A stretch of 64,000 nt of DNA from an uncultured Gammaproteobacteria bacterium (GTDB lineage: Bacteria; Patescibacteriota; Microgenomatia; Daviesbacterales; UBA10151): the NCBI GenBank assembly GCA_964551605.1, contig CAZKCV010000003.1, positions 15,474 to 79,473 on the forward strand, written 5' to 3'. Position numbers and translations under genes: made by a program. Under the pieces are notes generated by a model. That model made no database searches. It was given only the letters and a program-made list of their open reading frames with translations, and had not been told where the DNA came from. Positions 28,780 to 45,742 of the stretch are shown here, piece by piece (the first letter of the stretch is position 1; the number at the start of each line of letters is the position of its first letter).

Positions 28780-30159
28780 ATGTCCAGAATCCTTTCTTCA
28801 AGATTTTTATTCCAAATCTTTAGTGTGATACTTTCCCTTTTTATACCCTTTTTAGCATCAGAAAAGGTGCTGGCTCAAAATGTTAATATTCGGTGTAGCG
28901 ACAATTTCCAAAAGTATATCCGGTCTGTTAATCTACCAGAAGAAGTTCGCCTCGGAGAAGCTTTTAATGTCAAAGTGGCGTTTACCTCCATTGCAGATAC
29001 TTCCTTAAATTATTATCTGAAATTCACTCAGCCAGGAACTCCACTGTTCGGCCAAAATATCGGTAATGCGGATTTCCGAACAGAGTGGCAACATATTAGT
29101 AACCCAGCAAATCCGGAAATTGATTTCAGTTTTGATAATCGCAACGATACTAGCCCAGGCACCTTCCAACTCAGCTTAATGTATACCACACGTAATTTCG
29201 ATAGAGAAGAAGAGGTATGTAAATTAGGCACTATTAATTTTGTCGAAAAAAACATGAATGAAATTACTTGTAATCTGAAAATGCCTGATAAGGTTGAGCA
29301 AGATAAACCCTTCACTATGAACCTGGATAAAGTTGATAAGCCCAATATCGAATATGCCTTCTATTTCTTTTCCAAAGGAGACATCGATATTAATAAATTA
29401 CCCAAAGGTATGGCAGTTGTTCAAACTGGTAGAAATTTAGCACCCATCTCGAAATTCACTCCCGGTAAAAATACACGCTACAGCAGTGGAGCACTGCCTT
29501 CAAATCCTTCCGGGTCAATTCCCATAACATATAGCAATAACGGAGGTGACCGACTTCGTGGAGGGGAATATATTGCTGTCATCGAAGCTAGAAGACTTCT
29601 AAACTGGAATCCTAGCTTCACTCTTACCGGAGATGACAATAAATGGCTGGTTTCTTACTGTAGTTACCACCCCTTTACCGTCAGCTCAGAACCTACCTCT
29701 GCGGAAACTGACGGGACAGCTATTGCCAAACCAGGGAAAGGTGGTACTTTAGGCGGAGAAGACCTCAAAACTGAAACTTGTTTGGAAAGATTAAGAAAAG
29801 ATCCTACTGCCAAGTGTGCAGAGGCAGGCGGAAAACAAATAAGCGGTTGCGGTGGCCAGGATGACCCAAGAGGACCGGCCATTGCCACTGCTATTGGCTG
29901 TATCCATACCAATCCTGTGGAATTTACTAAAGATATCATGAAGTTTGTTTTGGGTATTGCCGGTGGCCTGGCTTTCTTAATGATGCTGATGGGTGCTTTT
30001 CAAATTCTTTCTTCTGCTGATAACCCGGACACCTTAAAAGCCGGCAGAGAAAGATTAACCAGCGCTGTAATCGGACTTCTGTTAGTTATTTTTGCCGTCT
30101 TGCTGCTGCAAATAATCGGAATTGATATACTGCATTTGCCCGGATTCGGAAGATCATGA
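28780..30159 (+). CDS. large pilin-domain protein: signal peptide + ~370-aa extracellular domain fused to a C-terminal VirB2/TrbC-like pilin module
   Basis: The C-terminal 80 aa (FVLGIAGGLAFLMMLMGAFQILSSADNPDTLKAGRERLTSAVIGLLLVIFAVLLLQII) share the motif of the five small pilin genes downstream. Confidence 0.55.
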   Translation: MSRILSSRFLFQIFSVILSLFIPFLASEKVLAQNVNIRCSDNFQKYIRSVNLPEEVRLGEAFNVKVAFTSIADTSLNYYLKFTQPGTPLFGQNIGNADFRTEWQHISNPANPEIDFSFDNRNDTSPGTFQLSLMYTTRNFDREEEVCKLGTINFVEKNMNEITCNLKMPDKVEQDKPFTMNLDKVDKPNIEYAFYFFSKGDIDINKLPKGMAVVQTGRNLAPISKFTPGKNTRYSSGALPSNPSGSIPITYSNNGGDRLRGGEYIAVIEARRLLNWNPSFTLTGDDNKWLVSYCSYHPFTVSSEPTSAETDGTAIAKPGKGGTLGGEDLKTETCLERLRKDPTAKCAEAGGKQISGCGGQDDPRGPAIATAIGCIHTNPVEFTKDIMKFVLGIAGGLAFLMMLMGAFQILSSADNPDTLKAGRERLTSAVIGLLLVIFAVLLLQIIGIDILHLPGFGRS

Positions 30160-30182
30160 CAATATACAACATCAATTAACCT

Positions 30183-30600
30183 AATTAATCTAATTTCTAA
30201 TTTACCTAAAGAATGACTAATGACGAAATTACCAAAAAGTTTAACCTGGAAGATAGAACAGCTCTATTTGGAGAAAGTGTGATTAAATTTTGCCAAAAGA
30301 TATTCAGGGGACCTTTAACTGATCCTTTGATTATACAACTGGTAAAATGTGGCACCAGTGTAGGTGCTAATTATTGCGAAGCAGATGATGCAGAGAGTAA
30401 AATGGACTTTAAGCATAAAATAGGCATTTGTAAAAAAGAGGCTAGGGAAGCTAAACATTTTATCAGAATGGTTGTAATTGCAATACCTGCTTTAAAAGAA
30501 GAAGCCAAACCACTATGGCAAGAAGCGAAAGAATTAAACTTGATATTTAACGCTATTTATAAGAAAGTAAAATAAGGAAGAATTAATCTAATTTCTAATT
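30183..30600. mobile_element. putative insertion cassette: four-helix-bundle gene bounded by perfect 20-bp direct repeats (AATTAATCTAATTTCTAATT)
   Basis: Identical 20-mers at 30183-30202 and 30581-30600 flank the 30213..30575 CDS. An inverted partial copy (aattagaaatt) lies at ~30665-30675. Confidence 0.45.
30213..30575 (+). CDS. four-helix-bundle protein (23S rRNA intervening-sequence protein family, TIGR02436-like)
   Basis: 120 aa. LVKCGTSVGANYCEADDAESKMDFKHKIGICKKEAREAKHFIRM matches this family. Confidence 0.75.
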   Translation: MTNDEITKKFNLEDRTALFGESVIKFCQKIFRGPLTDPLIIQLVKCGTSVGANYCEADDAESKMDFKHKIGICKKEAREAKHFIRMVVIAIPALKEEAKPLWQEAKELNLIFNAIYKKVK

Positions 30601-30675
30601 ATTCTAATTGATCTAAACTTAGACATTTGATCATTGGGATTTATTTAGAAATTAGTAATTAAAAATTAGAAATTT

Positions 30676-30990
30676 ATGAAGCTAGCTCTAACCTTACCTG
30701 GCTCTAATAATATTGTTGATAGCCCTGTAAAAGAGAAGTTTACTGATCTCGCTGGTGTCCTAACCGGCATACTTAATATCGTCTTTTACCTGGCAGCCTT
30801 TATGGCTTTTTTCTATATCCTCTGGGGGGCATTTTCCTATATCAGCGCCCAGGGCAAAAAAGAAGATTTGGCCAAGGCCCGGGCCAGGATCACCTGGGCT
30901 ATAATCGGATTAGTGATTGTCTTTCTGGCCTTTATCCTCACCCAATTTATTGCCGAAGTATTTAAGCCGCAAGGAGGATTACCATTCTGA
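30676..30990 (+). CDS. VirB2/TrbC-like T4SS pilin paralog
   Basis: 104 aa with two hydrophobic helices and the shared loop motif GAFSYISAQGKKEDLAKARARITWAIIGLVIV. Confidence 0.6.
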   Translation: MKLALTLPGSNNIVDSPVKEKFTDLAGVLTGILNIVFYLAAFMAFFYILWGAFSYISAQGKKEDLAKARARITWAIIGLVIVFLAFILTQFIAEVFKPQGGLPF

Positions 30991-30992
30991 AA

Positions 30993-31022
30993 AAGGGTAC
31001 AGGGTACAGGGTACAGGGTACA
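30993..31022. repeat. tandem heptamer repeat (GGTACAG x4)
   Basis: gggtacagggtacagggtacagggtacag lies between two pilin genes. Confidence 0.5.
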
Positions 31023-31037: not shown

Positions 31038-31406
31038 TTGGCTATAGTATTTTTTGTTTTGCTATACTACATGCCCACTCCTGCTTATGCTGCCTGTGTT
31101 GAACCGGGGAAAGGTGTCCGGATTAGCGACTGTTTCGGCTTTGGGGATGTTAAATCCGTAGGAGATGCCACCAACAGAGGAATTCCTGCCTTATTTGCCC
31201 TACTGGCAGCCATAGTGGTGGTATATTTTGTCTGGGGAGCTTTTAAGTTTATTTTATCCAGAGGGAATAAAGAAGCAGTAGCAGAAGCCAGAGGTATGAT
31301 TACCCATGCCATTATCGGTTTTATTCTATTAATCTTTGTTTTTGTGATCTTGCAATTTTTACTAAATAGCTTATTTAAGATACAATTTAGTATTATAGGA
31401 ACCTAA
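31038..31406 (+). CDS. VirB2/TrbC-like T4SS pilin paralog
   Basis: 122 aa; motif GAFKFILSRGNKEAVAEARGMITHAIIGFILLIFV. Confidence 0.6.
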   Translation: MAIVFFVLLYYMPTPAYAACVEPGKGVRISDCFGFGDVKSVGDATNRGIPALFALLAAIVVVYFVWGAFKFILSRGNKEAVAEARGMITHAIIGFILLIFVFVILQFLLNSLFKIQFSIIGT

Positions 31407-31411: not shown

Positions 31412-31840
31412 ATGCGAATTTTACAGATTGTACTGCTGGGAATTTTTTGTCTTTTTGTTTTCGTACCTAGAACTTTAGCTATCGACCCTCCATGTCAGCC
31501 GGACGACAAAAGGGTGGAATGCGTTTTTGGCACCATATCTGCTCCCCCTCCTTTGGCTGAGTTTCTAAAAGATGATCCGACCGGGGCCGGAGCAATCAGT
31601 AATTTTTTATCTAACCTGGTAGCCTTATTTTTTACCTTGGCAACTATAGTGGCATTGTTTATGTTTCTGTGGGCAGCAATTGAATGGATGACTTCCGGCG
31701 GGGAAAAAGAGAAAGTTGCCTCAGCCCGCAATAAAATCATCTATACCATTATTGGTATAGTCCTTTTGGCCACAGCTTTTGCCATTCTTAACATAGTAGG
31801 CATATTTACCGGCTTTACTTTCTTTGCCGGTCAAAAGTAG
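31412..31840 (+). CDS. VirB2/TrbC-like T4SS pilin paralog
   Basis: 142 aa; motif AAIEWMTSGGEKEKVASARNKIIYTIIGIVLL. Confidence 0.6.
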   Translation: MRILQIVLLGIFCLFVFVPRTLAIDPPCQPDDKRVECVFGTISAPPPLAEFLKDDPTGAGAISNFLSNLVALFFTLATIVALFMFLWAAIEWMTSGGEKEKVASARNKIIYTIIGIVLLATAFAILNIVGIFTGFTFFAGQK

Positions 31841-31883: not shown

Positions 31884-32273
31884 ATGAAAAAATTAGCTGT
31901 TATTGGAGCCGGAATTACCAGCCTCTTAACACCGGTCAAAGCTTTCGCGCAAGGAACGGTAGTGATCCAACCCCCACCAGGCAAAGGATTCCCCTCATTA
32001 TCCAATTTTATCCAAAATGCCCTATTGTTAGTTTTTACAGTCGGGGCTTTCATTGTCTTGCTGATGTTAATTATCGGAGCATACGAGTGGATGACTTCCG
32101 GCGGCGACAAAGAAGCCGTCGGTAAAGCCAGAAACAGGATCATTAATGCCTTGATTGGCTTAGTAATATTAGCTATCGCCTTTGCTCTAGTCAACCTGAT
32201 TGGTGTATTCACCGGCTTAAATCTTAGAAATTTGACAGTACCTGGTCCTGCGGCAACCGATACCAATCTTTAA
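31884..32273 (+). CDS. VirB2/TrbC-like T4SS pilin paralog
   Basis: 129 aa; signal-like N-terminus; motif GAYEWMTSGGDKEAVGKARNRIINALIGLVILAIA. Confidence 0.6.
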   Translation: MKKLAVIGAGITSLLTPVKAFAQGTVVIQPPPGKGFPSLSNFIQNALLLVFTVGAFIVLLMLIIGAYEWMTSGGDKEAVGKARNRIINALIGLVILAIAFALVNLIGVFTGLNLRNLTVPGPAATDTNL

Positions 32274-32322: not shown

Positions 32323-32643
32323 ATGGGACCTCCTCCGGCCGGTTTAACTGAACTGGAAAATTTAGTAGCAAATGTAATCTCGGTAATAGTAGCCCTGGGA
32401 TTTATTGCCATGTTTGTGACGCTGATCATGGCCGGATTTAAATACCTAACCTCCGGCGGTGAACCCAAAGCCATCCAGACCGCTCACCATACCTTATCCT
32501 GGGCCATTTTAGGCATCTTACTTATGATCGTAGCCTGGATACTGTTACAGCTTATCCAGGCCTTTACCGGAATAGAAGTAACCGTGTTTAACATCAAAAC
32601 ACTTTGTAAAAATGCCGCAGGAGCCTTGTCATTTTGTCCGTAA
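32323..32643 (+). CDS. VirB2/TrbC-like T4SS pilin paralog
   Basis: 106 aa; motif AGFKYLTSGGEPKAIQTAHHTLSWAILGILLMIVA. Confidence 0.6.
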   Translation: MGPPPAGLTELENLVANVISVIVALGFIAMFVTLIMAGFKYLTSGGEPKAIQTAHHTLSWAILGILLMIVAWILLQLIQAFTGIEVTVFNIKTLCKNAAGALSFCP

Positions 32644-32701: not shown

Positions 32702-34480
32702 ATGACTGCCCTGAGTAGAATTAAGGATTTAGAATTAGGAATTAAACTTTTCATACCTTTATTCTTTATTCTTATTGCTTTATTCTTACCCAACCCTGCC
32801 TTTGCCCAAACCGCTTCCTCAAGTGCTGCAGCTCTAGCGCCTGCCACCTATAACCTACCACCTACCGTCTCCCCTGTTTCCCCGCTTTATACTGACCTGT
32901 TAGTAAATAATATGTTCCATACTTTTTCCTGCCTGGCTATTGGCCAATCAATCATCGGCCAGCCTTGTTTAACTTATCAACTAACCCAAAATGCCCAAGG
33001 CATGCTGCAAGGAGTGCCGGTTCTTTCCCAGACTAATTTATCAGGAGGGGCTTTAGGCGGCGTCACTTCCGTAATAGGCATGCTATACACCAATCCGCCG
33101 GTTCGGACTGCCGATTATTTAGCCAGCGTAGGAGAGGGTTTAGGTGTAGTCAAACAGGCTCATGCCCAAGGGGTAGGCGGTTCCGGAGCGGCAGTTCTAA
33201 ACCCCATCCTAAAACTCTGGCAGGTTTCCCGGAATATTTCTTATGTCATACTCATTCTTATCTTTCTGGTAATCGGACTGATGGTCATGTTTAGGAATAA
33301 AATCAACCCACAGACAGTTATCACAGCCCAAACAGCTTTACCGGGACTGGTAATCGGCCTGGTCATGATTACATTTTCCTACTTCTTTGCCGGCCTGATT
33401 TCCGATTTGGCCTTTGTAGGGACAAATGTTGTAGGTTTTTATTTTACAACCGCACAGAATAAGCCACCCGAAGATTTAACACAAAAAATCTCAGGTAGTA
33501 ATATCTTGAATATCATGGGCTCGCTTACAGGAATTATCGAAAGCGGAGATGTTGCTAGCTTTTCCGGCATACTGTTTGACTCTCTCGGTGGTGAAGCCCA
33601 AAAAGCCATCCGGATCTTGGTATTTTGGCTGAGTTCCCAGTTCGTATCAGGCTTAATACCAGACGTAGGAGGAACCGGTAATGCTTTGACACCCTTAATA
33701 AAACCCATTGCCGGTATTATCACAGGAATAGCAACAAATGCCATGATTTCTCCCCTGCTGGGACAATTTTTAAGTCTTGCTGCAGCTTTAGCCTTAGTCT
33801 ATCAACTACTCAAACTACTATTTAAGTTAATTATGACCTGGCTGACAATTATTTTTTTAACCATCATAGCACCATTTCAGTTTCTTTTTGCCTCCTTGCC
33901 GGGCAGACAAGGAATGGCTACCGGTTGGATGCTAAACATGTTGGGTAACATCCTAGTGTTTCCGGCTGTTATAGCTGTAATTTATTTTGTCGCTTTTTTA
34001 CTGGGTCCTAGATTTGCAGCCAACTGCCCCAAAGATAATACTGGTTCTTGTCTGATTCAAATTTCTGCTGTTAACCAACAAGATGATAGTATTTTAGCAG
34101 CACCAGTATACGCAGCGGATAGTAATGATGTAATCGGAACTCATGCTTTCCCTTTATTTGGGGGAATGGATTTAAGTTGGATTCAAATATTACTGGCTTT
34201 TGGGGCCTTAATGGCATTACCGGCAATACCTGATATAATAGTAAGAACTGTTGGAAAGGCAGGACAAGCAGGACAAATGATTGGACAAGAAGTTGTGGGT
34301 GGCGGCAGAACCGGCCAGGGTTTTGCCCAACGGAGCTATAGCTCAGGTATCCAAACCGGACAGACCTGGAAAACAGGTCTCCTTGGTGAAACACAAGTTT
34401 TGCCGTCAGGCGACACTAAGGTAGTAAAACGCGGTCTATTTAGAAATGTCTACGGATGGGGAGTGGGGAGGAAACCTTAA
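32702..34480 (+). CDS. VirB6/TrbL-like polytopic inner-membrane T4SS component
   Basis: 592 aa with a signal peptide and at least six TM segments separated by loops. It sits directly after the pilin array, as in VirB/Trb operons. Confidence 0.5.
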   Translation: MTALSRIKDLELGIKLFIPLFFILIALFLPNPAFAQTASSSAAALAPATYNLPPTVSPVSPLYTDLLVNNMFHTFSCLAIGQSIIGQPCLTYQLTQNAQGMLQGVPVLSQTNLSGGALGGVTSVIGMLYTNPPVRTADYLASVGEGLGVVKQAHAQGVGGSGAAVLNPILKLWQVSRNISYVILILIFLVIGLMVMFRNKINPQTVITAQTALPGLVIGLVMITFSYFFAGLISDLAFVGTNVVGFYFTTAQNKPPEDLTQKISGSNILNIMGSLTGIIESGDVASFSGILFDSLGGEAQKAIRILVFWLSSQFVSGLIPDVGGTGNALTPLIKPIAGIITGIATNAMISPLLGQFLSLAAALALVYQLLKLLFKLIMTWLTIIFLTIIAPFQFLFASLPGRQGMATGWMLNMLGNILVFPAVIAVIYFVAFLLGPRFAANCPKDNTGSCLIQISAVNQQDDSILAAPVYAADSNDVIGTHAFPLFGGMDLSWIQILLAFGALMALPAIPDIIVRTVGKAGQAGQMIGQEVVGGGRTGQGFAQRSYSSGIQTGQTWKTGLLGETQVLPSGDTKVVKRGLFRNVYGWGVGRKP

Positions 34481-34490: not shown

Positions 34491-37400
34491 TTATTTTGCC
34501 AGAATTGCCCGCCTCATTAATTCAGTCAAAAGCGTCCCATCCTGACCAAAGTAGTTCTCCTGTTTGCTCAACGGTGTCTTAGCTGTAAACGGTTCAAGCA
34601 CTGCCCTTATTAAAGGCATATTGATATTATAAACTGATTGTCCCTCAGGATGCGCTACCGCCCAATAAGCCATTCTCCTAATAGCAGTATCGCCGCTAAA
34701 TTTAGCTGCTAAAGGTACCTGGGAAGCAGTACCAACAAAGGCTAGGCTATTTCCGTAAATTGTCACCCTCTCCCATCTGTTTTCTATTTCGTCTATAGCT
34801 TTTTCATAGTCCCCTGCTTCTAATTTATCCCATTTCCTTTTTGACATAAGCCACAAAGACGAACTTTCGCTCTCTAGTCCTGAGTTGGATTGTGCAAGAG
34901 TATAATTATTTCTCCCAATAGTTTTGACTATTTTTTTGAAAATGCCCTCAAAATTAGGATTCTGGCCGACTTGCCCGCCGATTAAAACCGGACGGACTGC
35001 TTCTGCGCCCTTGGCTGCCTCTAACCAGCGCTCGGTCTGCAATTCATCCATGGCACCACTAAAATCTACTTCATAATCAAACCCGTGCGTCCTAAAGCCA
35101 TTATAAGTAGAAATAATGCCCCTTAATCCTCTGCTGCCGATACTATGATCTAAACCTCTGAAATTAGATTCCAGATATTTCAGAAAACCCCTACCACGGG
35201 CAGCCTGACCACGGTTCCATAAAGTCCAAAACCGCTGTTCAATCATCCTTCTGCCAATAAAAGGTGTGTTTCGGCGATTTTCCACATATTCTGCTTCCAC
35301 TTCCCCGTCTTTATACAAATCAGGCTGGTAAAAAGCCCCGAAAACTTTCACACTATCTACTGCAAAACAAAACCTTCTCTGGGTTTCCTGAGCCCGGAAG
35401 ATTCGTTTCCTTTTTTCATCGGGATCAGAAATGCCTTTTAATAAAGTATTATCCGGATCAATCAATCGTCTGGTTCTGGCCGGGTAGGTATTATAATGAG
35501 GGTGATCAGAGTTATAGGCGGCAGCGGTGATTTCCTGCGACATCAACAAGCTGCTGTAATTTTGATCATCAGTCATGGAAAAATTATACTGCGGATCAGC
35601 ATCTTCCCGATTGATAATATCGCGATAGCCAACAGAAGCTCTTTTTTGTGTTTCTCCCTTATGAACACTCAGAACCTGCTTATCTCTGGCAGCTTGTCTG
35701 CTGGCAAAATTAATCGGTAGTTGACTTTGAATTATTTCATTTTGGATTATTCCATCTATATCAGCAACAGTTAAATCACTTCCTTTTTCTTTTAATTTTT
35801 CCAAAACTTTTTCCTGAATGTCTTCCACTGTTTGAACATAAGTCGCATATTGTTGTTCTTCTTCTGTCAAAGTAATTAATCTTAATGACTCTTGGGCATT
35901 CTTCCCTAATTCACTGTCTTTTCCTTTATCACTGATCACCTTGTTAGATATTTTTCTAAATTCCAATTTATCAGCTATATCCACATATCTTAAACCGGCT
36001 CCCTCTTTGGTAGCAGAGGTAATTGCTTTGGCAATAGTTTCGGGCAAACTGGCGATGGCTCTTTCCCTGACAAATTTATTCAGGCGGACCACATCATTAT
36101 ATGCAAGTAATTCACCTTTACCCTTGCCGGGTATCTCATGCTTGGTGATCAGCAAGGCGCCGGCTTTTTCCGCACTGATGAAAAATACGTCTCTGGTCTT
36201 AATTGCCAAATCAACTGCCTGCCTGGCCCGGGAAATTTCCGGAAACATACGCAGTTCTTTCTCTGTTAATTTACCGCCATCTTCTAGTTTTTTAAGTAGC
36301 TCATCTCTAGCCAAAAATTGCCTTTCAGTTTCGCTTAGCTGTTCATTATTATTGTGCTTTAGCCATAATTCTGCTACTTTAGCATCATAGCCTGCCTTCG
36401 ACCCAAAACCCGCATATTCTGTGTAGAGACTTCTAAATTGTCTATCTGTCTGGTCAATTACTACCAGTTCCTCGGTTTTTTGATAAGGTCTAATCCGATC
36501 TAAAATCAGCATTTTTTTCTCTATATCCGTTAACTGATCTGTCACTGTGACAGTTTGGGGATCTTTTTGGTTTAAAGCCTTTAATTTATCATTAATTCTT
36601 TTTATTTCATCTAAATATTGGGAATTCTGGAATAACCTTGTAACAGAAAGGGGTTGATTAGTAACAGGATCAATGGCGTTTCTGTCAAAACCAAATCCAT
36701 CAATTTGCGTCTCAATACCGACAAAGTTTTCTCTGATTACCGTATCGATATCTTTAAGCTGTGACAAGGCAATTCTGACTTCTAATCTACGGCGCTCTTT
36801 TGCCCGATCAGACCATAATACTTCATCGTTTTGTCCGCTTGGATCTGAAAGAAATTCGGCCGGCCTGGAGAATTTATCATATTCTTCATCATTATCTAAA
36901 ATATCTGCCGCATGCATCACTTCGGCTTCATGAGCTTTGGCAATAGCATTTAACCTAATATTAATATGCTTACCGATTTCTGAAGTGATCTGGTGCCACT
37001 CAGGCACATTCCAACGGACAGCAAAATGATCAGATACATTAACCAATAAAGTGCCTTGTGCCCTAGCCACTTCACTAGATATCCTCTCTTCTTCCATTCC
37101 CATTTGACGGCCGGTACGCTGAATCTCCTCATTTAATCCGTAAGCATCCTGCCTCATTTGATCGGGCGTAAAAGTACTGCTTTCGCTGGTAGCAACCTGC
37201 AGAAAATGATCAATTCCTTTGACAATTTCCTCAGGAGTCCTGCCGGTTAAAACGATCCTGCCCCAACTTCTATCCCAAAATGGGTTTTTTTCGCGCTGCT
37301 CGTTTAATCTCTCATCTTCTCTGGTTCTGATTGACTCTATCAATCGATCACCTATTTCTGTAGGAGATAAAGCAACTCCTTTGAAAACTTTTTCTAGGGC

Positions 37401-38177: not shown

Positions 38178-39110
38178 TTAGCCGCATCTTTTGACAGCTC
38201 TGCATTTGGGACAACTATCCCCGGCCCTGACTATACAATTTATTTCTTCTTGGCAAATCGGACATACCCGGCAAAAATCAGAGTCTTTACCGCTGGAACC
38301 TGATGAACCCCCATAAGAAATAGCGTTTTCCGAAACAACCTGAAAGCCGGTTCTGCCACCACTACCAGATCGCGGCGGACAACTGCCACCCTGTAAGCCC
38401 AGTATTTGCATAACGGCCTTTTTTGCCTCATCTGAATAAGATAATCTCGAATCAGTAAAAAACTGTTTTTGGACCATTGCAGCCCGCCTCAAGGCTTCTT
38501 TTTTATATTCTTTATCTTCCCCATTTCTGATCATTGTCCAAACTTTGGGAGCATCAATTAATTTTTCCAGAATATCAACCCAGGATTTTTTCTCTTCATC
38601 TAAAATTAAAGGGGTCGCCCTGATCCCGTCTGAACTCCGAAATATAGGTTTATTAAGGCTAAAGCTGGTTAAATTCCAGGCAAATTTCATACACTGCTCT
38701 TCATTAAAATCCAGCACAATCGCCCGGTTAAATACTTTTTTAACTCCTGCTTCATAAATAATTTCCTGAACAATTATCTTAGAAGTAGGATAAACCCCTG
38801 CTTTTGGCGGACTAATCCAAATAGAAGCCCCTTTTTTATTAGCAGCAGCCCATTGTTCGTTTGCTAATACAGCCTGATATTCTAGTTGCCCCAACAGACT
38901 GGTTTTATCATCAATAGTAGCTTTCACCAGACACTGACCGATCGGCGAGAATAATTCTCCGCTTGCTGTAATCGAATAAAAATAAGGATCAGGAATCCGG
39001 TAAGTCTCTTGGCTTAAAGAAGCCAGATATTCAGCAAATTGCGCGGCGGTGGTGTTTCGTAAACCGGGAATATTTTCGGTAGCCGTTCGCTCTTGTTCTA
39101 ATACTGGCAT
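38178..39110 (-). CDS. hypothetical protein with C-terminal 4-Cys zinc ribbon
   Basis: Preferred start is MPVLEQ (39110), preceded by a GGAG Shine-Dalgarno. The C-terminus reads CRVCPICQEE...CPKCRAVKRCG. A Gly/Ser-rich linker precedes the Zn ribbon. Confidence 0.5.
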   Translation of the reverse strand: MPVLEQERTATENIPGLRNTTAAQFAEYLASLSQETYRIPDPYFYSITASGELFSPIGQCLVKATIDDKTSLLGQLEYQAVLANEQWAAANKKGASIWISPPKAGVYPTSKIIVQEIIYEAGVKKVFNRAIVLDFNEEQCMKFAWNLTSFSLNKPIFRSSDGIRATPLILDEEKKSWVDILEKLIDAPKVWTMIRNGEDKEYKKEALRRAAMVQKQFFTDSRLSYSDEAKKAVMQILGLQGGSCPPRSGSGGRTGFQVVSENAISYGGSSGSSGKDSDFCRVCPICQEEINCIVRAGDSCPKCRAVKRCG

Positions 39111-39454
39111 ATAACTCCTGCTCGGGATAAAAAATTGTGGTCGGTCTCCTGACTTTACCCTTCGATTCCACTCAGGGTTATAACAGTTGCGGCACAGTCT
39201 CTGATTTACACAGAGTTCCCTTAAGAGCGAAGCTTGCAAGCTCCGCTTATTGTACTTTGAGTTCAATTCTGAACCTAGTACACCACCATCCCAGCATAGC
39301 CGGAGAATTATCAATTTTCAAGTCCCAATTTTCTCCACTGATTTAATCTGATCTTGTCCGAATTGATCTGTTTTGTGCCGCTTGCCAATACTTTTTTCAC
39401 GTTGTATAACAGTGATGAGTTCGTAGTTGGTAGTTCGTAGTACTAAGTTATAAA

Positions 39455-39845: not shown

Positions 39846-40904
39846 ATGGATGCCCACCCTATCCCTCAAAACGTAACCTCTTTCCAATTCAAACTGGTAG
39901 GAGATATGACCTTGAAGCAATTTGCCTACCTGGCTACCGGTGCCGCCGCCGCTTACATTACCTTTGTATTTTTTACCAAAGACTACCCTTTTTTTGCCTG
40001 GCCTCTGACAATTTTATTTGCCGGCTCAGGAGCAGTCTTTGCCTTTTTGCCGATCGGTTCCCGCCCCCTGGATTATTGGACCAAGGCTTTCTTAAAGGCC
40101 GTTTACTCACCCACCAAAAGAGTCTGGAAGAAAAACGGAAAAACCTTCAGGGATGATCCTTTATTTAAGAGCCGGCTGGCTATGTATCTGGCCGGGACAC
40201 AACTGCCTCAACCGATAATTGATAATCCGCTGCTGGCTCCAGCGGAAAACGGCAAGCCAAAGACGGAAGACATTTCTTTACCCCTGGTTAATAAACCCGG
40301 CCCACCACTCCCCACGCCGGACGCTTTGAAAAAAACCGTGGACCTGGCCAGGGAGGCCCAACAAGTCCAGATGCAAATCATTCAAACAGAGAGAACCCTT
40401 TCCCAAATCAAATCCCAGGCTCAAAAACCCACTCCCATTCCCGTAGACTATAGCCAGCAGGTTAATAAGGTTTTATCTGACTTACAGGGCCTGATGAGCC
40501 ATGCCTCAGAGGTCAAGCAACAAATTCAAACTATCCAGACACCGCCACAAAAGGCTCCGGAAAGCATCCCGGCAGTCAGCCGGGAAAAAGTTAAAGTGGT
40601 AGCTTCACAAAAGGCTCAACCAGTGCCTATCACCTTAACCACCTTTCCGAATGTAATTAATGGCATTGTCAAGGATAAAAGCAATAATTACCTGGATGGT
40701 GTGGTGGCCGTTATCTATGATAAAGATGGTCTGCCGGTTAGAGCACTGAAAACTAATAAATTAGGCCAGTTTACCGGCTCCACCCCGCTTTTGGACGGAA
40801 CTTATACTTTGGAACTGGAAAAAGAAGGCTTTACCTTTGATGTTTTACAAATTGAATTAGCAGGACAAGTCATGCCGCCGCTGACGATTACGGCTAAGGG
40901 ATAA
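39846..40904 (+). CDS. membrane protein with two N-terminal TM helices, Pro-rich linker and C-terminal beta-sandwich (carboxypeptidase-regulatory/Big-like) domain; possible VirB3/VirB8-analogous T4SS component
   Basis: 352 aa. TM helices (LATGAAAAYITFVFF, FAWPLTILFAGSGAVFAFL); C-terminal region NGIVKDKSNNYLDGVVAVIYDKDGLPV...GTYTLELEKEGF. Confidence 0.4.
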   Translation: MDAHPIPQNVTSFQFKLVGDMTLKQFAYLATGAAAAYITFVFFTKDYPFFAWPLTILFAGSGAVFAFLPIGSRPLDYWTKAFLKAVYSPTKRVWKKNGKTFRDDPLFKSRLAMYLAGTQLPQPIIDNPLLAPAENGKPKTEDISLPLVNKPGPPLPTPDALKKTVDLAREAQQVQMQIIQTERTLSQIKSQAQKPTPIPVDYSQQVNKVLSDLQGLMSHASEVKQQIQTIQTPPQKAPESIPAVSREKVKVVASQKAQPVPITLTTFPNVINGIVKDKSNNYLDGVVAVIYDKDGLPVRALKTNKLGQFTGSTPLLDGTYTLELEKEGFTFDVLQIELAGQVMPPLTITAKG

Positions 40905-40914: not shown

Positions 40915-41655
40915 ATGAACACTACACAACAACATCTGGCTGTTAGGGATATTCACGGTGACATTCTGATTCTCAAAGACGGCGGAGGCGCCCTGGTGCT
41001 GCAGGTTTCAGCTGTTAATTTTGGCTTGCTTTCCGAACGTGAACAGATGGCCATTATCCAAAGTTTTGCCCAAATGCTTAATTCGTTATCTTTTAGCCTG
41101 CAGATTGTCATTCATTCCGAAAGGCTTAACTTAAGCTCTTATCTGACGCTTTTGGAAAAAGCCCAAAAAGCTCAGACTAATCCGCTGCTGTCGCAAATGA
41201 TTACCGACTATAAACAATTCATACAAAGTGTAGTTAAAGACATGGAAGTACTGGATAAAAAATTTTATATTATCATTCCTCTGTTTAGCATAGAACTAGG
41301 TCTAACTGCCTCCAAAGCTAATTTAGAACAAAAAATTAAAACCGTACTCACGCCCAGAAAAGATCAGGTCATCAGACAACTGCAGCGGGTAGGACTGCAG
41401 GCTGTTCAATTAGACAAAGCAAAATTAATTGAGGTTTTCTATGATATCTATAACGGAGAACAAATCCAGCCGGCTGAATCAGTTCAACTACAGGACCTGG
41501 CAGTCAGGCTCAAAAATCCGCAACCCAGTCAAGCCGGTCCGCAAGCCAATATACCGCCACCTATCCAACAACCCACTCCTCAACCAGTTCAGGCACCAAC
41601 TGCCACCCAAACAGCAAGAAACCATCCTTTTATTGTAGAGGAGCTGGAAGCATGA
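40915..41655 (+). CDS. VirB4/TrbE N-terminal domain protein (split from the ATPase domain)
   Basis: 246 aa. LAVRDIHGDILILKDGGGALVLQVSAVNFGLLSEREQMAIIQSFAQMLNSL matches the VirB4/TrbE N-terminal pattern. Ends in a Pro/Gln-rich tail and overlaps the next ORF by 4 nt (ATGA). Confidence 0.5.
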   Translation: MNTTQQHLAVRDIHGDILILKDGGGALVLQVSAVNFGLLSEREQMAIIQSFAQMLNSLSFSLQIVIHSERLNLSSYLTLLEKAQKAQTNPLLSQMITDYKQFIQSVVKDMEVLDKKFYIIIPLFSIELGLTASKANLEQKIKTVLTPRKDQVIRQLQRVGLQAVQLDKAKLIEVFYDIYNGEQIQPAESVQLQDLAVRLKNPQPSQAGPQANIPPPIQQPTPQPVQAPTATQTARNHPFIVEELEA

Positions 41656-43409
41656 AACTACCAAGTTTACTTAAAAAAACAAAGCAAACTGATCCGGCGA
41701 TTCCTCAGTTAACTCTGGAGGATGTTCTGGCACCGGCTGAACTGGAAGTAGATTTTAACTACCTAAAAGTAGACGGCCGCTTTTTCAGAACCTATTTTGT
41801 GTCTAATTATCCCCGCTATGTTGATCCCAACTGGCTGGAGCCGTTAATTTCCTTTGACCATACCCTGCTCATTTCCATGTTTATTTATCCTTCCCAATCA
41901 CAAGGGGTGCTGGATGAGCTTAAACGCAAGGTAGCTGAGATGGAAGCCACCATCCAAACAGACCTGGAGCGGGGCCGGGCTATTGACCCGGCAGTAGAAG
42001 TCGCTTTAGAAGATGCCAGGGGCTTGCAGGACCAGCTGGTCAGGGGGGTAGAGCGGTTTTTCCAGTTTGGTCTCTATATTTGTGTACCGGCTGCTTCCCT
42101 GGAAGAGCTGCAAAATACTTCCAAGCTCGTGGAATCTACTTTAGCGGCTCTTTCCATTACCGCCAAACAGGTCATCTTGCAAATGGAGGACGGGTTTAAG
42201 TCCTGCCTGCCCCAGGGTCAGGATTTATTAAACCTAAACCATAATATGGACACCACCTCCCTGGCTACTACTTTTCCCTTTGCCTCATCAGAATTGACTG
42301 CCAACGAAGGTATTATGTACGGAATTAATGAGCATAACGGCTCGCTGATTTTATTTGACAGGTTTAGTTTGGAAAACTTTAATTCAGTTATTTTTGCCAA
42401 AGCCGGGGCCGGCAAATCATACTTTGTAAAACTGGAGGCCTTAAGATCATTAATGTTCGGAGCGGAAATTATCGTCATTGATCCTGAACAGGAATACCTA
42501 CCCCTCTGCCAGGCAGTCGGAGGTGAATATATTAACTTTTCCGCCTCATCACCGGTAAAAATCAATCCCTTTGACATGTCAGGCGAACTGGTACCCGGGG
42601 AAAATGAGCTGGGCCGAAAAATCTTATCTTTAACCAGCTTCTTAAGGATTGTTTTAGGCAACTTAAACGCCCAGGAAACAGCGGTTTTAGACCGGGCCCT
42701 AAAACAAACCTATCAATTAAAAGGCATTACTGATAATCCGGAAACCCAAAATAAAATCCCGCCCTTAATGGAGGATTTATATAAAGTCTTAATCGGGATG
42801 GAAGAAGGCCCGACCATGGAGCTGGCTGCCAGATTAGAGCGCTTCATTAAAGGCTCATTGACCGGTATTTTTTCTGCCCACTCCAATATTGACCTTAAAA
42901 ATTCCTTTACTGTCTTTTCTGTCCGGGATTTGCCGGATCAGCTGCGGCCCTTAGCCATCCATATGATTTTGGAATATGTCTGGACCAAAATCAGGGGGAA
43001 GCTTAAAAAAAGATTATTAATCGTAGATGAAGCCTGGTATTTAATGAGAAACCAGGATTCGGCTGACTTTTTAGTGGATATGGCCAAAAGGGCCAGGAAA
43101 TATTATCTGGGGCTAACTACTATTACTCAGGATGTCGAGGATTTTCTGGCCACTGAGCGGGGCAAGGAAATTATCTCCAACTCCTCCATCCAGGTACTCT
43201 TAAAACAAGCTCCGGCTTCTATTGACCTTTTGGCGGAAGTTTTTAATTTATCAGAAGGGGAACAAAGGCTGCTCATGTCAGAAGGAGTAGGTGAAGGAAT
43301 ATTCTTTGCCGGTAATACCCATGTCGCTATGAGGGTGGTGGCCTCCTCCAACGAGCATGAATTAATTACCACCAGCCCCCAGGAGATCCTGGCCAGACAA
43401 GAAGAATAA
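41652..43409 (+). CDS. VirB4/TrbE-family T4SS ATPase (central and C-terminal ATPase domains)
   Basis: 585 aa. Walker A FAKAGAGKSYFVK, Walker B RLLIVDEAWYLM, and a VirB4-like mid region (RTYFVSNYPRYVDPNWLEPLI). Confidence 0.8.
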   Translation: MKLPSLLKKTKQTDPAIPQLTLEDVLAPAELEVDFNYLKVDGRFFRTYFVSNYPRYVDPNWLEPLISFDHTLLISMFIYPSQSQGVLDELKRKVAEMEATIQTDLERGRAIDPAVEVALEDARGLQDQLVRGVERFFQFGLYICVPAASLEELQNTSKLVESTLAALSITAKQVILQMEDGFKSCLPQGQDLLNLNHNMDTTSLATTFPFASSELTANEGIMYGINEHNGSLILFDRFSLENFNSVIFAKAGAGKSYFVKLEALRSLMFGAEIIVIDPEQEYLPLCQAVGGEYINFSASSPVKINPFDMSGELVPGENELGRKILSLTSFLRIVLGNLNAQETAVLDRALKQTYQLKGITDNPETQNKIPPLMEDLYKVLIGMEEGPTMELAARLERFIKGSLTGIFSAHSNIDLKNSFTVFSVRDLPDQLRPLAIHMILEYVWTKIRGKLKKRLLIVDEAWYLMRNQDSADFLVDMAKRARKYYLGLTTITQDVEDFLATERGKEIISNSSIQVLLKQAPASIDLLAEVFNLSEGEQRLLMSEGVGEGIFFAGNTHVAMRVVASSNEHELITTSPQEILARQEE

Positions 43410-43424
43410 TGATAATCTAAACTT

Positions 43425-45299
43425 ATGGCTATCTTAAATCCTTTAGAACTTACCCGGCTTAAGTCACTGCTTTCAGGAAAAGTGCTTACAACAGAAGAGC
43501 AAATCAACACCTTGGACCTGCTGCGATCCAGGTTTTCTAATTTCTTTTCCAGTCTGGAACCTAATCTAACAGAAGAAAAGCTCAAGGATAATAAATTTCT
43601 TATCAAATACTTATCAAATCCCTATAACAGAAATAAAATCAAAAATGCCCTTCGCAGCGAACTATCCCTGCCTGCAGACCAACAAATCGCCCTGGAACAA
43701 GCGCTCAGCGAAAAGCCTGTTGCAGCAGAAGAAGCCGGTGGACAGTCAACTAACCAAGAAGCAACACCAGCAACCGGTCAAGAAACACAACCAGCAGGAG
43801 CAGCCGGCAGTTCTGCCGTGAACATGCCTTTTGGCGGCATGTCATCCGTTCCCTCTTTCTCTTCCTCCCCGCGTGTTTTTGCAACTCAACAAACCCCGCC
43901 GGTCGGCGGGATGGAAGGCGGCACTGGCCAAGGCACAGCTGCCACCAATAAAGCAGGCCGGAGTTTTAACTTTTCGTCTTTTAGATCTAAGGTGGGATCA
44001 AAAATAACTGGAGCTGCCAGAACCGGACTGGAGAAAGCTAACCCATTTCTAAAACAGATGGGTACCGGAGGAATCAACGCCCTCTCTGGTATGGCTAATT
44101 TCGGCGGGGGACAGGGAGGTATTTTCTCATCATTGGGAAGATTCGGTAAAGGCGGCGGACGAGACAGCTCTTTAGTCAGTAAAGCTAAAGGCAGAGGGGG
44201 ATTGATTTTTGCAGGAGCTTTAATAGGCGCTATGTTTCTGGTAGGAGCAATGGCAGCTTTCGCCCCAAACCCCACCCCTGGCCAGACTGCACCTATAAGT
44301 AATACTTCCGGCCTGGATTATACCCTCCCTTTGAAAAGCACATCTGTTCAACCTTTGGATATTAAAAATCAAGTTACAGCAGCTTTCCCGGGAGCCAAAC
44401 TGGAATATTGGGATAAAATCGTCCAAAGCAGTATAGCTGCCGGATTTAATCCAGCTTTAGCGCTAGCCTTGTGGATTGAGGAGACAGGCGCTTCACACAC
44501 CACGCTTGCCAGAAATGGCGGCAGCGAAATTCCCGTTAACGGAAACTTAACCAAAGGCCATCTGGGCTGTGCGCCAACACAGGACCAGGCCATAGACGAA
44601 AGCTTAAGTTGTTTATTTAAATTTATGGCCACATATAACTTTACCAATGACCAGTTCGCGGATTTTATGGCCAAATATTCCGGAGGACCAACCAACGCTC
44701 CGTTTTCTAACAATCCAAATTTCCCCAAAAATCTTAAGGAGTGGTATTCAAAATTGGTACCTTCCGGAGCCGGAGCCATCGTGGCAGTCACCCCCAGTCC
44801 AATGCCTCAGCAAGCTATAGCTTCTTGCCCTGTAGCCGAAGGACGCATTAGCACGCCTTCTTATAATGCCAGCCCCAATACAGGACACTGTGGAGGTAGT
44901 TATGCTTCTTCTTGTCATTGCGGAACAACAGGCAGAAGAGCCAAAGCTATTGATGTCCCCACCAACGGCCAAAGTGTGGTTCTACCAACCGTCAACGGTC
45001 AATCGGTCAACTGGAAACTCATCGAGGGACCTTACCAAGTAGAGATTGGCGAGGGCGGCGGACAAGGCTATACTTTCCAAGCCAATCAGGGAAACGATAC
45101 CTGGTATCTGGATATGTTGCACTTAAACACATCTTCTCTAGCGCGGAACACAGAGTACCCTTCCGGGACGCCTGTAGCAAAAAGCGCGATTACACACGTA
45201 CATATGACCATAGGCAGAAACTTAAGCAGCCGGCCGATAGCCGGAACTGCAACGGATTGCGACCCCAACTGGCTGCCATCAGACTTTTTATGTCAATGA
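43425..45299 (+). CDS. T4SS-associated putative cell-wall hydrolase (Gly-rich linker, TM segment, C-terminal degenerate M23/LytM-like domain)
   Basis: 624 aa with a TM helix LIFAGALIGAMFLVGAMAAF. C-terminal motifs HCGGSYASSCHC...AIDV...GNDTWYLDMLHLN resemble the HxxxD / HxH of M23 peptidases (inference). Confidence 0.4.
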   Translation: MAILNPLELTRLKSLLSGKVLTTEEQINTLDLLRSRFSNFFSSLEPNLTEEKLKDNKFLIKYLSNPYNRNKIKNALRSELSLPADQQIALEQALSEKPVAAEEAGGQSTNQEATPATGQETQPAGAAGSSAVNMPFGGMSSVPSFSSSPRVFATQQTPPVGGMEGGTGQGTAATNKAGRSFNFSSFRSKVGSKITGAARTGLEKANPFLKQMGTGGINALSGMANFGGGQGGIFSSLGRFGKGGGRDSSLVSKAKGRGGLIFAGALIGAMFLVGAMAAFAPNPTPGQTAPISNTSGLDYTLPLKSTSVQPLDIKNQVTAAFPGAKLEYWDKIVQSSIAAGFNPALALALWIEETGASHTTLARNGGSEIPVNGNLTKGHLGCAPTQDQAIDESLSCLFKFMATYNFTNDQFADFMAKYSGGPTNAPFSNNPNFPKNLKEWYSKLVPSGAGAIVAVTPSPMPQQAIASCPVAEGRISTPSYNASPNTGHCGGSYASSCHCGTTGRRAKAIDVPTNGQSVVLPTVNGQSVNWKLIEGPYQVEIGEGGGQGYTFQANQGNDTWYLDMLHLNTSSLARNTEYPSGTPVAKSAITHVHMTIGRNLSSRPIAGTATDCDPNWLPSDFLCQ

Positions 45300-45742
45300 A
45301 AAATATTAAAATCATAATATTTATAATAGTTATGCTAAGTATTATGGCTTTTATTCTGAAAAGCCGTATTACTATCTTACCTTCCCCCTCCCAGTCACCC
45401 TCACCACAAACAGTATCCTCATCCGACAAGCCCACAATAATTTCTACCAAACCTAATCCTTTGGATGAAAGTATTATTACAGCCACGGAAATAGTAGAAA
45501 TTACTTTTAACCGGACCATTGAGAATGTGGGGGAATTTAAGGTCAAAATTGAGCCGGAAATAGAATACAGGATGGAGCTTTCCGGGGACAGAAAAACCGC
45601 TAAAATTATCCCCCTTAAACCTTACCAGCTAGGCACAACTTATACCTTGTTTATCGGCACTGAAACTAAATTTGACGGCGTGGGCAGATGGGGAGAAGAA
45701 AAGGTTTTCCATTTTAGAACCATTAAGTATACGGGTGTATAA
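45257..45742 (+). CDS. secreted/anchored hypothetical protein with Ig-like (SbsA/Big-type) domain
   Basis: 161 aa with an N-terminal hydrophobic helix and a Ser/Pro linker. ATEIVEITFNRTIENVGEFKVKIEPEIEY...KIIPLKPYQLGTTYTLFIG resembles a bacterial Ig-like domain. Confidence 0.4.
   Translation: MRPQLAAIRLFMSMKNIKIIIFIIVMLSIMAFILKSRITILPSPSQSPSPQTVSSSDKPTIISTKPNPLDESIITATEIVEITFNRTIENVGEFKVKIEPEIEYRMELSGDRKTAKIIPLKPYQLGTTYTLFIGTETKFDGVGRWGEEKVFHFRTIKYTGV

Follow-up and report, generated by a model that had tools for sequence, protein, structure and literature searches.

A probable origin-proximal T4SS with six VirB2-like pilins and a separate TrsD-like partner of VirB4 in a Candidatus Daviesbacteria-like patescibacterium

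Gene content of the locus

The window, which is the whole 64-kb stretch of DNA analyzed here, contains a T4SS block in which the plus-strand genes follow one another in the order six PF18895 ORFs, polytopic protein, PrgI/VirB3-like protein, 246-aa TrsD-like protein, VirB4, bitopic protein, Ig-like protein and dnaN. Two further genes lie on the minus strand. All of the ORFs named in the original prediction are present. The features are:

28780..30159, plus strand: large pilin, 459 aa (PF18895, 34 bits, residues 379-446)
30676..30990, plus strand: small VirB2-like pilin 1, 104 aa (PF18895, 41 bits)
31038..31406, plus strand: small VirB2-like pilin 2, 122 aa (PF18895, 38.6 bits; positional orthologs 43-90% identical)
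31412..31840, plus strand: small VirB2-like pilin 3, 142 aa (PF18895, 43.3 bits; positional orthologs 39-67% identical)
31884..32273, plus strand: small VirB2-like pilin 4, 129 aa (PF18895, 38.8 bits; positional orthologs 43-66% identical)
32323..32643, plus strand: small VirB2-like pilin 5, 106 aa, without signal peptide (PF18895, 34.6 bits; positional orthologs 39-85% identical)
32702..34480, plus strand: polytopic membrane protein, 592 aa, with six to seven hydrophobic segments, candidate VirB6 equivalent
34491..38090, minus strand: giant protein, 1199 aa, convergent with the polytopic gene
38178..39314, minus strand: 378-aa protein with a C-terminal CxxC...CxxC zinc ribbon; its gene precedes that of the giant protein in the direction of transcription
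39846..40904, plus strand: PrgI/VirB3-like protein, 352 aa, whose C-terminal beta domain is CarboxypepD_reg-like (PF12666, 32.2 bits)
40915..41655, plus strand: TrsD-like protein, 246 aa, stand-alone homolog of the VirB4 N-terminal region (NCBIfam matches)
41652..43409, plus strand: VirB4 ATPase, 585 aa, CD1110/MPF_FATA type (NCBIfam NF045971; Pfam P-loop_TraG)
43425..45299, plus strand: bitopic protein, 624 aa, in the PrgK/VirB1 position, with one TM segment (residues 256-281)
45257..45742, plus strand: Ig-like (Big_5) protein, 161 aa, membrane-anchored or exported, the last before dnaN (PF13205, 26.6 bits)

The order fusion pilin, five pilins, polytopic gene and giant gene is kept in four related loci (L004, L006, L081 and L083).

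The pilin array

All six plus-strand pilin ORFs match Pfam PF18895 (T4SS_pilin) with 34-43 bits, above the cut-off of 26.6 bits. None of the six passes the classical TrbC/VirB2 model PF04956, for which pilins 3 and 4 score 18.7 and 19.4 bits, under its cut-off. The small ORFs are thus VirB2-like as predicted, by way of PF18895 and not of TrbC. The six proteins align as a helix, a charged loop and a second helix, and pilin 3 has in addition a signal peptide and an N-terminal extension that contains Cys. The 20-residue motif originally proposed for the array is a loose consensus only: over its 13 specified positions the small ORFs have 0, 1, 1, 2 and 2 mismatches and the fusion protein has 5, and the best match in any other protein of the locus has 6-8.

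The 459-aa protein is the one large fusion member that the original prediction had described; it has PF18895 at its C-terminus and an exported region of beta domains. Its signal helix is followed by two Ig/PKD-like beta-sandwich domains, then by a Cys-rich linker and the two-helix hairpin of T4SS_pilin. In its AF2 model (pLDDT 82.5) these correspond to a helix at residues 6-25, beta domains at residues 35-155 and 164-302, and helices at residues 379-411 and 416-446. Comparison of the model with the PDB returned generic Ig/PKD/CARDB folds only. In 35 homologs, residues 361-459 are 69-83% identical, whereas residues 1-340 are only 13-25% identical. The protein is therefore a highly conserved anchor carrying a hypervariable ectodomain of two Ig-like domains, which goes beyond the descriptions in PMC12102498 and PMC10633639.

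It is possible, though somewhat unlikely, that the PF18895 proteins are membrane-embedded parts of the translocon, or a short conduit across the cell wall, and that no extracellular pilus is formed. Monoderm T4SSs normally lack pili, PF04956 is not passed, and a patescibacterial pilus is only a matter of speculation in PMC12102498 and in a FEMS review; the literature examined contains no report of a pilus made by such a system, and the FEMS review mentions it as a possibility only. However, the hairpin with its charged loop and the size of the proteins match VirB2-type pilins, and an exported, Ig-like ectodomain of 340 aa on a conserved hairpin would fit display on the outside best.

Another question is whether the paralogs are distinct subunits of one structure or interchangeable alternatives serving antigenic or host-range variation. 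The latter has been suggested by analogy with Bartonella and Anaplasma (PMC12102498), and it is consistent with the low identity between paralogs (24-46%) and with the hypervariable ectodomain of the large pilin. Yet positional orthologs are 39-90% identical and thus more similar than paralogs are (for pilin 1, the same-position orthologs in L004, L081 and L083 are 47-68% identical). The six positions recur with their own orthologs, in the same order, in species with a VirB4 divergence of up to 27% or more, and neither recent duplicates nor recombination repeats were found in the array. Moreover, the six pilin genes of Southlakia epibionticum are listed as essential (supplementary table of PMC10633639), which argues against redundancy. 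Interchangeable pilins are therefore improbable. Because every array position has an ortholog of its own across the relatives, the sequence comparison indicates that the pilin set is old and fixed, a point also beyond the two publications. The number of pilins as such, which had been thought unusual, is typical of the group, as arrays of 2-11 pilins were already published for 383 assemblies, especially of Microgenomatia (PMC12102498).

Chromosomal position of the locus

The VirB4 protein is 55-87% identical to the VirB4 proteins of 80 Patescibacteria species (Daviesbacteria and other Microgenomates MAGs), and in 61 of these 80 species dnaN/dnaA adjoin the T4SS block. Judged by its sequence, the region is most probably (at roughly 0.85) a chromosomal, origin-proximal T4SS of a Candidatus Daviesbacteria-like (Microgenomatia) patescibacterium, Patescibacteria-specific and derived from MPF_FATA. 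The original proposal of a T4SS locus with an array of VirB2-like pilins is borne out by the six PF18895 matches and the VirB4 family match.

The label of an island, on the other hand, does not suit a block that adjoins dnaN/dnaA so regularly and in which relaxase, coupling protein and integrase genes are all missing. An ICE-like conjugative island, acquired horizontally and active in DNA transfer, would account for the monoderm conjugation (MPF_FATA) type of VirB4, PrgI and TrsD and for a gene order matching prgH-I-J-K of pCF10. It is nevertheless very improbable: the scan of ORFs of at least 200 aa in the 64-kb window detected neither a relaxase nor a T4CP, and no integrase was found among the scanned window ORFs; no flanking repeats surround the block; its G+C is close to that of the remainder of the window; its position is fixed in 61 of 80 species; and, of about 3,000 genomes, only about 100 are reported to have relaxases (PMC12102498). 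As neither a relaxase nor a coupling protein was found among the scanned ORFs of the 64-kb window, the system is probably not conjugative, although a gene for either could be located beyond the ends of the window.

VirB4 and its TrsD-like partner

The 585-aa ORF is VirB4, as predicted. It matches the CD1110 family (NF045971) with 376.5 bits (cut-off 325 bits) over profile positions 181-734 of 752, and Pfam P-loop_TraG with an E-value of 1.6e-26. The 246-aa ORF in front of it is indeed homologous to the N-terminal part of VirB4, with NCBIfam matches to VirB4_plasma (positions 132-282, E 3.3e-10), TrsD (E 1.2e-7) and CD1110 (positions 26-172, E 4.9e-6), so that the two ORFs jointly cover the CD1110 profile. 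An ATGA overlap at 41652-41655 couples VirB4 to the TrsD-like ORF, and a GAGGAG Shine-Dalgarno sequence is located 8 nt upstream of the VirB4 ATG.

In 74 of 80 loci the TrsD-like gene immediately precedes VirB4, and 72 of these 74 related species have them as separate ORFs. All three relative frames are represented among the separate pairs, the gaps range from -149 to +169 nt, and 18 of the pairs have the identical 4-nt overlap. The reading of the two ORFs as a pseudogene, or as a single VirB4 gene disrupted by a sequencing or assembly frameshift, draws on this overlap, on the single profile covered by both ORFs and on the two species in which the parts form one ORF of 814 or 834 aa, but it is close to refuted by the separation in 72 independent species-level assemblies, which speaks against an artefact, by the ribosome-binding site before the second ATG, by the S. 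epibionticum homolog SEML1_0009, a separate gene reported to be essential, and by the documented cases of TrsD as a protein of its own, which comprise 1,664 patescibacterial loci as well as the pGO1-type systems (PMC12102498). The "split VirB4" is the known pair of TrsD and VirB4. It is not unusual, as had been supposed, since the TrsD-type protein, found beside virB4, is the most abundant T4SS component in Patescibacteria (PMC12102498).

Other components

The PrgI/VirB3-like gene, which the original prediction had overlooked, precedes the TrsD-like gene in 72-73 of 80 loci. Its product exceeds the PF12666 cut-off of 27 bits and reaches 24.1 bits with PF13620, under the cut-off of that model.

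The polytopic gene is found directly 3' of the pilin array in 25 loci, and none of the 282 database homologs of its product is annotated. Pfam and NCBIfam searches gave no match to VirB6/TrbL or another family, an hhalign comparison with PrgH gave 0.2%, and one of 16 orthologs matched TrbL (E 0.0015). Its position is that of the VirB6-like SEML1_0013, and by this analogy it is a probable VirB6 equivalent. The bitopic protein had no match in Pfam, NCBIfam, PHROGs, PADLOC or PDB profile searches, and one of six orthologs gave a weak SLT match (E 0.0013). In its C-terminal domain H25, C26, D47, H103, H128 and H130 are invariant. The slot is occupied by PrgK in pCF10 and by SEML1_0006/0007 in S. 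epibionticum. No HMM confirms the earlier labels of VirB6/TrbL and cell-wall hydrolase for these two proteins, which derive solely from position and membrane topology. The Ig-domain protein, by contrast, was correctly recognized: it passes the Big_5 cut-off of 23.6 bits, begins with a hydrophobic segment and has orthologs in six Daviesbacteria-like loci. Its slot is that of the Ig-like/PEGA protein SEML1_0005 in S. epibionticum.

The giant protein is highly charged and mostly helical, with neither a TM segment nor a signal peptide, and its AF2 model has a pLDDT of 41. Six homologs were found among 5.8e9 proteins, and a search of 1.84e9 representatives gave 22 partial, mosaic matches; two of the mosaic relatives likewise converge with a VirB6-like gene. 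Proteins of 753-1569 aa that phmmer does not relate to one another fill the same slot in more than 20 loci. The position is thus conserved and the sequence hypervariable and fast-evolving, a further feature beyond PMC12102498 and PMC10633639. The essential, helical, 998-aa SEML1_0011 is a possible counterpart. The 378-aa zinc-ribbon protein matched no family in profile searches. It has orthologs in L001 (74% identity), L081 and L072, and in L085 an analogous upstream ORF likewise ends in a zinc ribbon.

Proposed working of the system

Building on the gene identities, the synteny and the conservation of the VirB4 split and of the pilin array observed here, we infer how a pilus might be assembled, which roles its subunits and the VirB6 and VirB1 equivalents might have, and what kind of transfer is served. 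The motor in the cytoplasm would be the CD1110-type VirB4, its N-terminal domain being supplied as a separate, translationally coupled TrsD-like polypeptide, and the PrgI/VirB3-like protein would anchor it. The polytopic protein, as the probable VirB6 equivalent, and the bitopic, extracytoplasmic protein at the PrgK/VirB1 position would then complete the envelope channel. The six VirB2-like proteins may assemble into a heteromeric pilus or channel extension, the body of which would be formed by the five small subunits. The conserved hairpin of the 459-aa pilin would join the polymer, leaving the hypervariable ectodomain to face outwards; this protein might thus be a minor, tip or target-recognition subunit.

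The role of patescibacterial T4SSs is described as unknown in the literature examined. The original statement, which gave T4SS-like pili a central part in attachment to the host and in DNA uptake, confuses type IV pili and ComEC with the T4SS. For the present system, exchange with a host cell is a more likely function than conjugation.

Comparison with known systems

The cluster belongs to the Patescibacteria T4SSs described by Wang et al. 2023 (PMC10633639) and surveyed by Quiñonero-Coronel et al. 2025 (PMC12102498). The best-studied of these is the essential cluster SEML1_0005-0019 of S. epibionticum ML1 (PMC10633639), which has the same components as the window, in the same order outward from dnaA/dnaN: an Ig-like exported protein, one or more proteins in the wall-hydrolase position, VirB4 (about 600 aa), the TrsD-like protein, PrgI (about 300 aa), a helical protein (about 1000 aa), the polytopic VirB6-like protein and six PF18895 pilins. 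Both clusters lack a relaxase and a T4CP. In the window, unlike S. epibionticum, the giant gene and its zinc-ribbon partner are on the opposite strand, no NTF2/VirB8-like gene is recognized in the cluster, and the protein in the hydrolase position has no detectable lysozyme or peptidase domain. The pilin genes are co-oriented with the polytopic gene in the window and divergent in S. epibionticum, where the pilins measure 103-185 aa; one of the six window pilins bears an ectodomain of about 340 aa.

With the MPF_FATA systems (prgH-prgI-prgJ-prgK of pCF10; trsC-trsD-trsE of pGO1/pSK41) the window shares a CD1110-family VirB4, a PrgI-family VirB3 and a large bitopic protein after VirB4, in the PrgK position. 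The separate TrsD-type N-terminal-domain protein is shared with the pGO1 type, whereas PrgJ of pCF10 is a single protein of 796 aa. The polytopic protein has no profile similarity to PrgH of pCF10. Unlike the window, these systems are without VirB2-like pilins and carry a relaxase, a T4CP and LPXTG adhesins on plasmids or ICEs.

The diderm VirB2/TrbC/TraA pilins resemble those of the window in their small size and in having two hydrophobic helices that form a hairpin with a basic loop, and two of the window paralogs have the sub-threshold TrbC matches mentioned above. The window pilins, however, belong to a different Pfam family (PF18895) and to a monoderm organism, and they form a set of six fixed paralogs, whereas a diderm T4SS has one major pilin. 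The idea of a specialized tip or adhesin subunit has its parallel in the VirB5 tip protein; in diderm systems this is a separate VirB5-fold protein, whereas in the window the putative adhesin is fused to a pilin.

The T4SS locus and its genomic setting

The T4SS block of the window (28780-45742) contains the following genes:

28780-30159 (+), large pilin, 459 aa
30676-32643 (+), five small pilins
32702-34480 (+), polytopic protein, 592 aa
34491-38090 (-), giant protein, 1199 aa
38178-39314 (-), Zn-ribbon protein, 378 aa
39846-40904 (+), PrgI/VirB3-family protein, 352 aa; missed in the original prediction
40915-41655 (+), TrsD-like protein, 246 aa
41652-43409 (+), VirB4, 585 aa
43425-45299 (+), bitopic protein, 624 aa
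45257-45742 (+), Ig-like (Big_5) protein

The ORF locations that had been predicted were confirmed, and the Ig-like (Big_5) call for 45257-45742 holds. The identification of 41652-43409 as VirB4 is borne out by a score of 376.5 bits against the NCBIfam CD1110 family NF045971 (cut-off 325) and by a match to Pfam P-loop_TraG (PF19044; E 1.6e-26). When compared with 80 species-level genomes, this VirB4 is 55-87% identical to its relatives, of which the closest belong to Candidatus Daviesbacteria and the rest to other Microgenomates/Patescibacteria. The 80 best matches at species level come from CPR MAGs, or from bins wrongly labelled as other taxa. The MAGs behind many of the closest related loci (L001, L008, L012, L016, L017 and others) are labelled 'uncultured Gammaproteobacteria', 'Pseudomonadales', 'Nevskiaceae' or 'Methanoperedens'; given their patescibacterial gene content, these labels are probably wrong.

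Among the 80 related loci, 74 have the TrsD-like gene immediately upstream of virB4, and the PrgI-like gene is kept beside them in 72. Six PF18895 proteins are encoded 9-13 kb upstream of virB4. The cluster is followed on the opposite strand by dnaN, which lies 83 nt beyond the last T4SS gene, and dnaA; 61 of the 80 loci have the same neighbourhood. The GC skew changes sign at ~48 kb of the window, which places the cluster right next to the origin. Neither a relaxase nor a coupling protein was found among the scanned window ORFs of at least 200 aa.

The locus is the T4SS described by Quiñonero-Coronel et al. 2025 (PMC12102498) and not a new system. Those authors reported a monophyletic clade of Patescibacteria VirB4 nested in MPF_FATA, with TrsD as its commonest accompanying component (1,664 copies beside virB4), PrgI/VirB3, and PF18895 VirB2-like pilins that include 441 arrays of 2-11 genes, especially in Microgenomatia. 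Relaxases were almost absent and dnaA/dnaN often nearby.

As judged from the skew switch and the orientation of dnaA/dnaN, the plus-strand T4SS genes are transcribed head-on to replication at less than 20 kb from the origin (28780-45742, set against 45825-48860), whereas the giant and Zn-ribbon genes run in the direction of replication; relatives keep this arrangement. The intergenic region 45743-45824, where the Big_5 gene and dnaN converge, contains AGCGTA/TACGCT repeats and the inverted repeat AGCGTATAG ... CTATACGCT, to which a 32-nt sequence at 21291-21322 is related. This element may act as a terminator in both directions, or it may be a small repeat element. Promoter and terminator scans gave nothing above the shuffled background. 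Elsewhere, the window encodes two side-by-side Fic-domain proteins and a LAGLIDADG endonuclease-like ORF beside putative tRNA-like sequences (inverted-repeat pairs I1 and I5), these features jointly occupying 3915-4787, 5016-6110, 19805-20581, 15392-15431 and 20728-20865.

The TrsD-like protein, VirB4 and PrgI

The ORF at 40915-41655 had been proposed to be homologous to the N-terminal region of VirB4, and its matches to VirB4_plasma (positions 132-282, E 3.3e-10) and CD1110 (positions 26-172) agree with this. Its score against the TrsD/TraD family NF041427 is 31.8 bits (E 1.2e-7), far under the cut-off of 200. The 585-aa protein takes up CD1110 positions 181-734, so that both ORFs jointly cover one VirB4 profile. 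The ATGA overlap of the two ORFs was confirmed, and a GAGGAG ribosome-binding site is located 8 nt ahead of the second ATG.

The split of VirB4 into two ORFs could in principle be an artefact. Where the TrsD-like ORF precedes VirB4, the two are separate in 72 of 74 species; each of the three relative frames is represented among these pairs, their gaps range from -149 to +169 nt, and a 4-nt overlap is common to 18 of them. For these reasons the artefact is rejected, and the split is, by comparison of these loci, the conserved state of the lineage. It had been called unusual; it is a documented norm, TrsD being widespread (PMC12102498).

[quoted passage not shown] These fusions, though rare, support the view that the two proteins are functionally linked. 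With 352 aa, the PrgI/VirB3-like protein is three times as long as the 117-aa PrgI of the monoderm conjugative plasmid pCF10 (NC_006827). It possesses a linker rich in Gln and Pro and, at its C-terminus, a CarboxypepD_reg-like beta domain that is kept in the Curtissbacteria orthologs.

The pilin array

All six consecutive plus-strand ORFs between 28780 and 32643 exceed the cut-off of PF18895 (T4SS_pilin), with 34-43 bits vs 26.6. They had been predicted to be VirB2/TrbC-type pilins; none reaches the cut-off of the classical TrbC/VirB2 family PF04956, to which two of the ORFs give sub-threshold matches (best 18.7 and 19.4 bits vs 27.9). In the alignment, where identity to the first sequence is 25-35%, each pilin shows a hydrophobic helix, a short charged loop and another hydrophobic helix; the same layout is seen in the hydropathy profiles and in the AF2 model of the large pilin (helices 379-411 and 416-446). 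The six ORFs had also been described as sharing a loop motif. The five small proteins miss 0-2 of its 13 specified positions and the large one misses 5, as compared with 6-8 in unrelated proteins; the motif is a loose consensus.

The order of the large pilin, five small pilins and the polytopic gene recurs in the related loci L004, L006, L081 and L083. Each pilin of the window is most similar to the pilin at the corresponding array position, with 39-90% identity as against 24-46% between paralogs, and the pilin set is therefore old and position-specific. Such a set is more in keeping with separate functions within a single structure than with variation through recent duplication, and it argues for a heteromeric structure. 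The number of pilins, which had been thought unusual, is within the arrays of 2-11 genes on record (PMC12102498).

In Daviesbacteria, L081 and L083 included, a block upstream of the pilins (24378-28723, minus strand, in the window) shows synteny with the T4SS locus. It encodes SpoIID, a 185-aa membrane protein, a DUF5657 protein and a ~610-aa protein with a beta-propeller-like C-terminus.

The large pilin and its ectodomain

The ORF at 28780-30159 was correctly predicted to be a pilin fused to a large domain, as its PF18895 match and the two-domain ectodomain of its AF2 model indicate. The model (pLDDT 82.5) comprises a signal helix, two beta-sandwich domains, a linker and the two-helix hairpin; PDB searches returned generic Ig/PKD/CARDB folds and nothing else. 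The protein has 239 detected homologs. Among the 35 compared, residues 361-459 are 69-83% identical and residues 1-340 are 13-25% identical. In VirB2 the termini are outside and the loop is inside. By analogy with this topology, the ectodomain of the large pilin would face outward. A pilin-ectodomain fusion of this kind was not found described in the literature consulted.

Small genes of the PF05635 family (23S_rRNA_IVP / bAvd-like four-helix bundles) recur inside related T4SS loci, near the large pilin or the giant gene:

window 30213-30575
window 39455-39823
L081 9578-9934
L081 11203-11559
L083 17727-18088
L085 1688-2080

Since bAvd-like genes flank the variable pilin, a diversity-generating retroelement (DGR) was considered as the source of its variation. 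It is rejected: no direct repeat in the window exceeds 38 nt, a template/variable-like repeat pair was not found, and no reverse transcriptase is encoded among the scanned window ORFs.

The giant and Zn-ribbon proteins

The 1199-aa giant, which had been predicted to be soluble, possesses neither a TM segment nor a signal peptide, and matches no family. Only six homologs were found among 5.8 billion proteins. An exhaustive search of 1.84 billion representatives, using a profile built from 3 sequences, gave 22 matches, mostly giants (950-1690 aa) in which the similarity is confined to an N-terminal module (residues ~50-280) or to a stretch at about 812-1055. The relatives are mosaic, and the sequence becomes unrecognisable between genera. 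Two of these mosaic relatives are also convergent to a VirB6-like gene.

Wherever the related flanking DNA reaches far enough, a giant of 753-1569 aa, likewise TM-free and with ~30% charged residues, is encoded convergently with the polytopic gene (the window, L004-L007, L009-L011, L022, L025, L030, L034, L040, L043, L052-L054, L063, L074, L081, L083, L085 and L086). More than 20 groups, unrelatable to one another by sequence, can be told apart among these giants, while the neighbouring VirB4 is still at least 55% identical. The giant-family profile found nothing among the positional analogs of other loci, and hhalign gave one weak link only (55% probability). The AF2 model from a 6-sequence alignment is unusable (pLDDT 41). 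Many giants begin with an 'MAE' motif, after which comes a stretch rich in Pro and Gly.

The Zn-ribbon protein, encoded upstream of the giant, ends in a CxxC...CxxC zinc ribbon and matches no known family; the same is true of its analog in L085 (263-1609). A defence-system or phage origin of the giant, Zn-ribbon, polytopic and 624-aa proteins was rejected, there being no PADLOC or PHROGs matches. The giant may be the counterpart of SEML1_0011, an essential helical protein of the Southlakia epibionticum T4SS cluster, or else a substrate.

The polytopic and bitopic proteins

The 592-aa protein had been labelled VirB6/TrbL-like. Hydropathy gives it 6-7 hydrophobic segments, and its position after the pilin array is conserved; it is a candidate VirB6 equivalent. 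No significant similarity to VirB6, TrbL or PrgH was found: there was no Pfam or NCBIfam match, the hhalign probability with pCF10 PrgH was 0.2%, the PDB profile search found nothing, and the database profile search for links to VirB6 yielded nothing decisive. One of 16 orthologs matches TrbL (E 0.0015). VirB6 is scarcely detectable in Microgenomatia (PMC12102498).

A single TM segment is present in the 624-aa protein, whose position is that of PrgK in pCF10. The cell-wall-hydrolase label given to it found no support in the protein itself: Pfam, NCBIfam, PHROGs and PDB profile searches detected no transglycosylase, lysozyme, CHAP or M23/LAS domain. The signs in favour of the label are a weak SLT match in one ortholog and the invariant His, Cys and Asp residues of the C-terminal domain. 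A search for M23/LAS similarity with the profile of this domain against PDB and Pfam gave only chance-level matches to alginate lyase (E 0.025).

A tentative description of the machine

By combining these observations, the locus can tentatively be described as two fast-evolving modules on a conserved Microgenomatia machine, a reading to which we assign a probability of about 0.3. The ectodomain pilin would recognise the host cell, and the giant together with the Zn-ribbon protein would be a substrate or an adaptor. In the pilin module, the conserved hairpin would insert in the pilus and the hypervariable two-Ig ectodomain would bind the host cell, replacing VirB5 as a pilin-borne adhesin. In the giant module, a charged mosaic cytoplasmic protein and its Zn-ribbon partner, fixed beside the VirB6-like gene, would constitute a translocated substrate or a lineage-specific adaptor, the giant possibly being equivalent to the essential SEML1_0011.

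The original prediction had presented T4SS-like pili as an apparatus for attachment and DNA uptake, a statement that mixes up T4SS with type IV pili. The locus offers three modest leads: fixed orthology of the pilins, a variable ectodomain on one of them, and a hypervariable giant slot tied to the locus. A single pilin carries the variable part, which is probably target-facing. These leads are concrete candidates for host-specificity determinants and a substrate.

Comparison with Southlakia epibionticum

The function of the patescibacterial T4SS has been called completely unknown in the literature. In S. epibionticum, the one genetically tractable patescibacterium, the T4SS cluster is essential (Wang et al. 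2023, PMC10633639). Outward from dnaA/dnaN, this cluster encodes an exported Ig-like protein, then lysozyme and peptidase proteins, a 612-aa VirB4 and a TrsD-like protein of 293 aa; beyond these come PrgI, a helical protein of 998 aa, an NTF2-like and a VirB6-like protein and, lastly, six small pilins. The order of components is common to the S. epibionticum cluster and the window. The two differ in their pilins, which are all 103-185 aa long in S. epibionticum, whereas the large pilin of the window has 459 aa.
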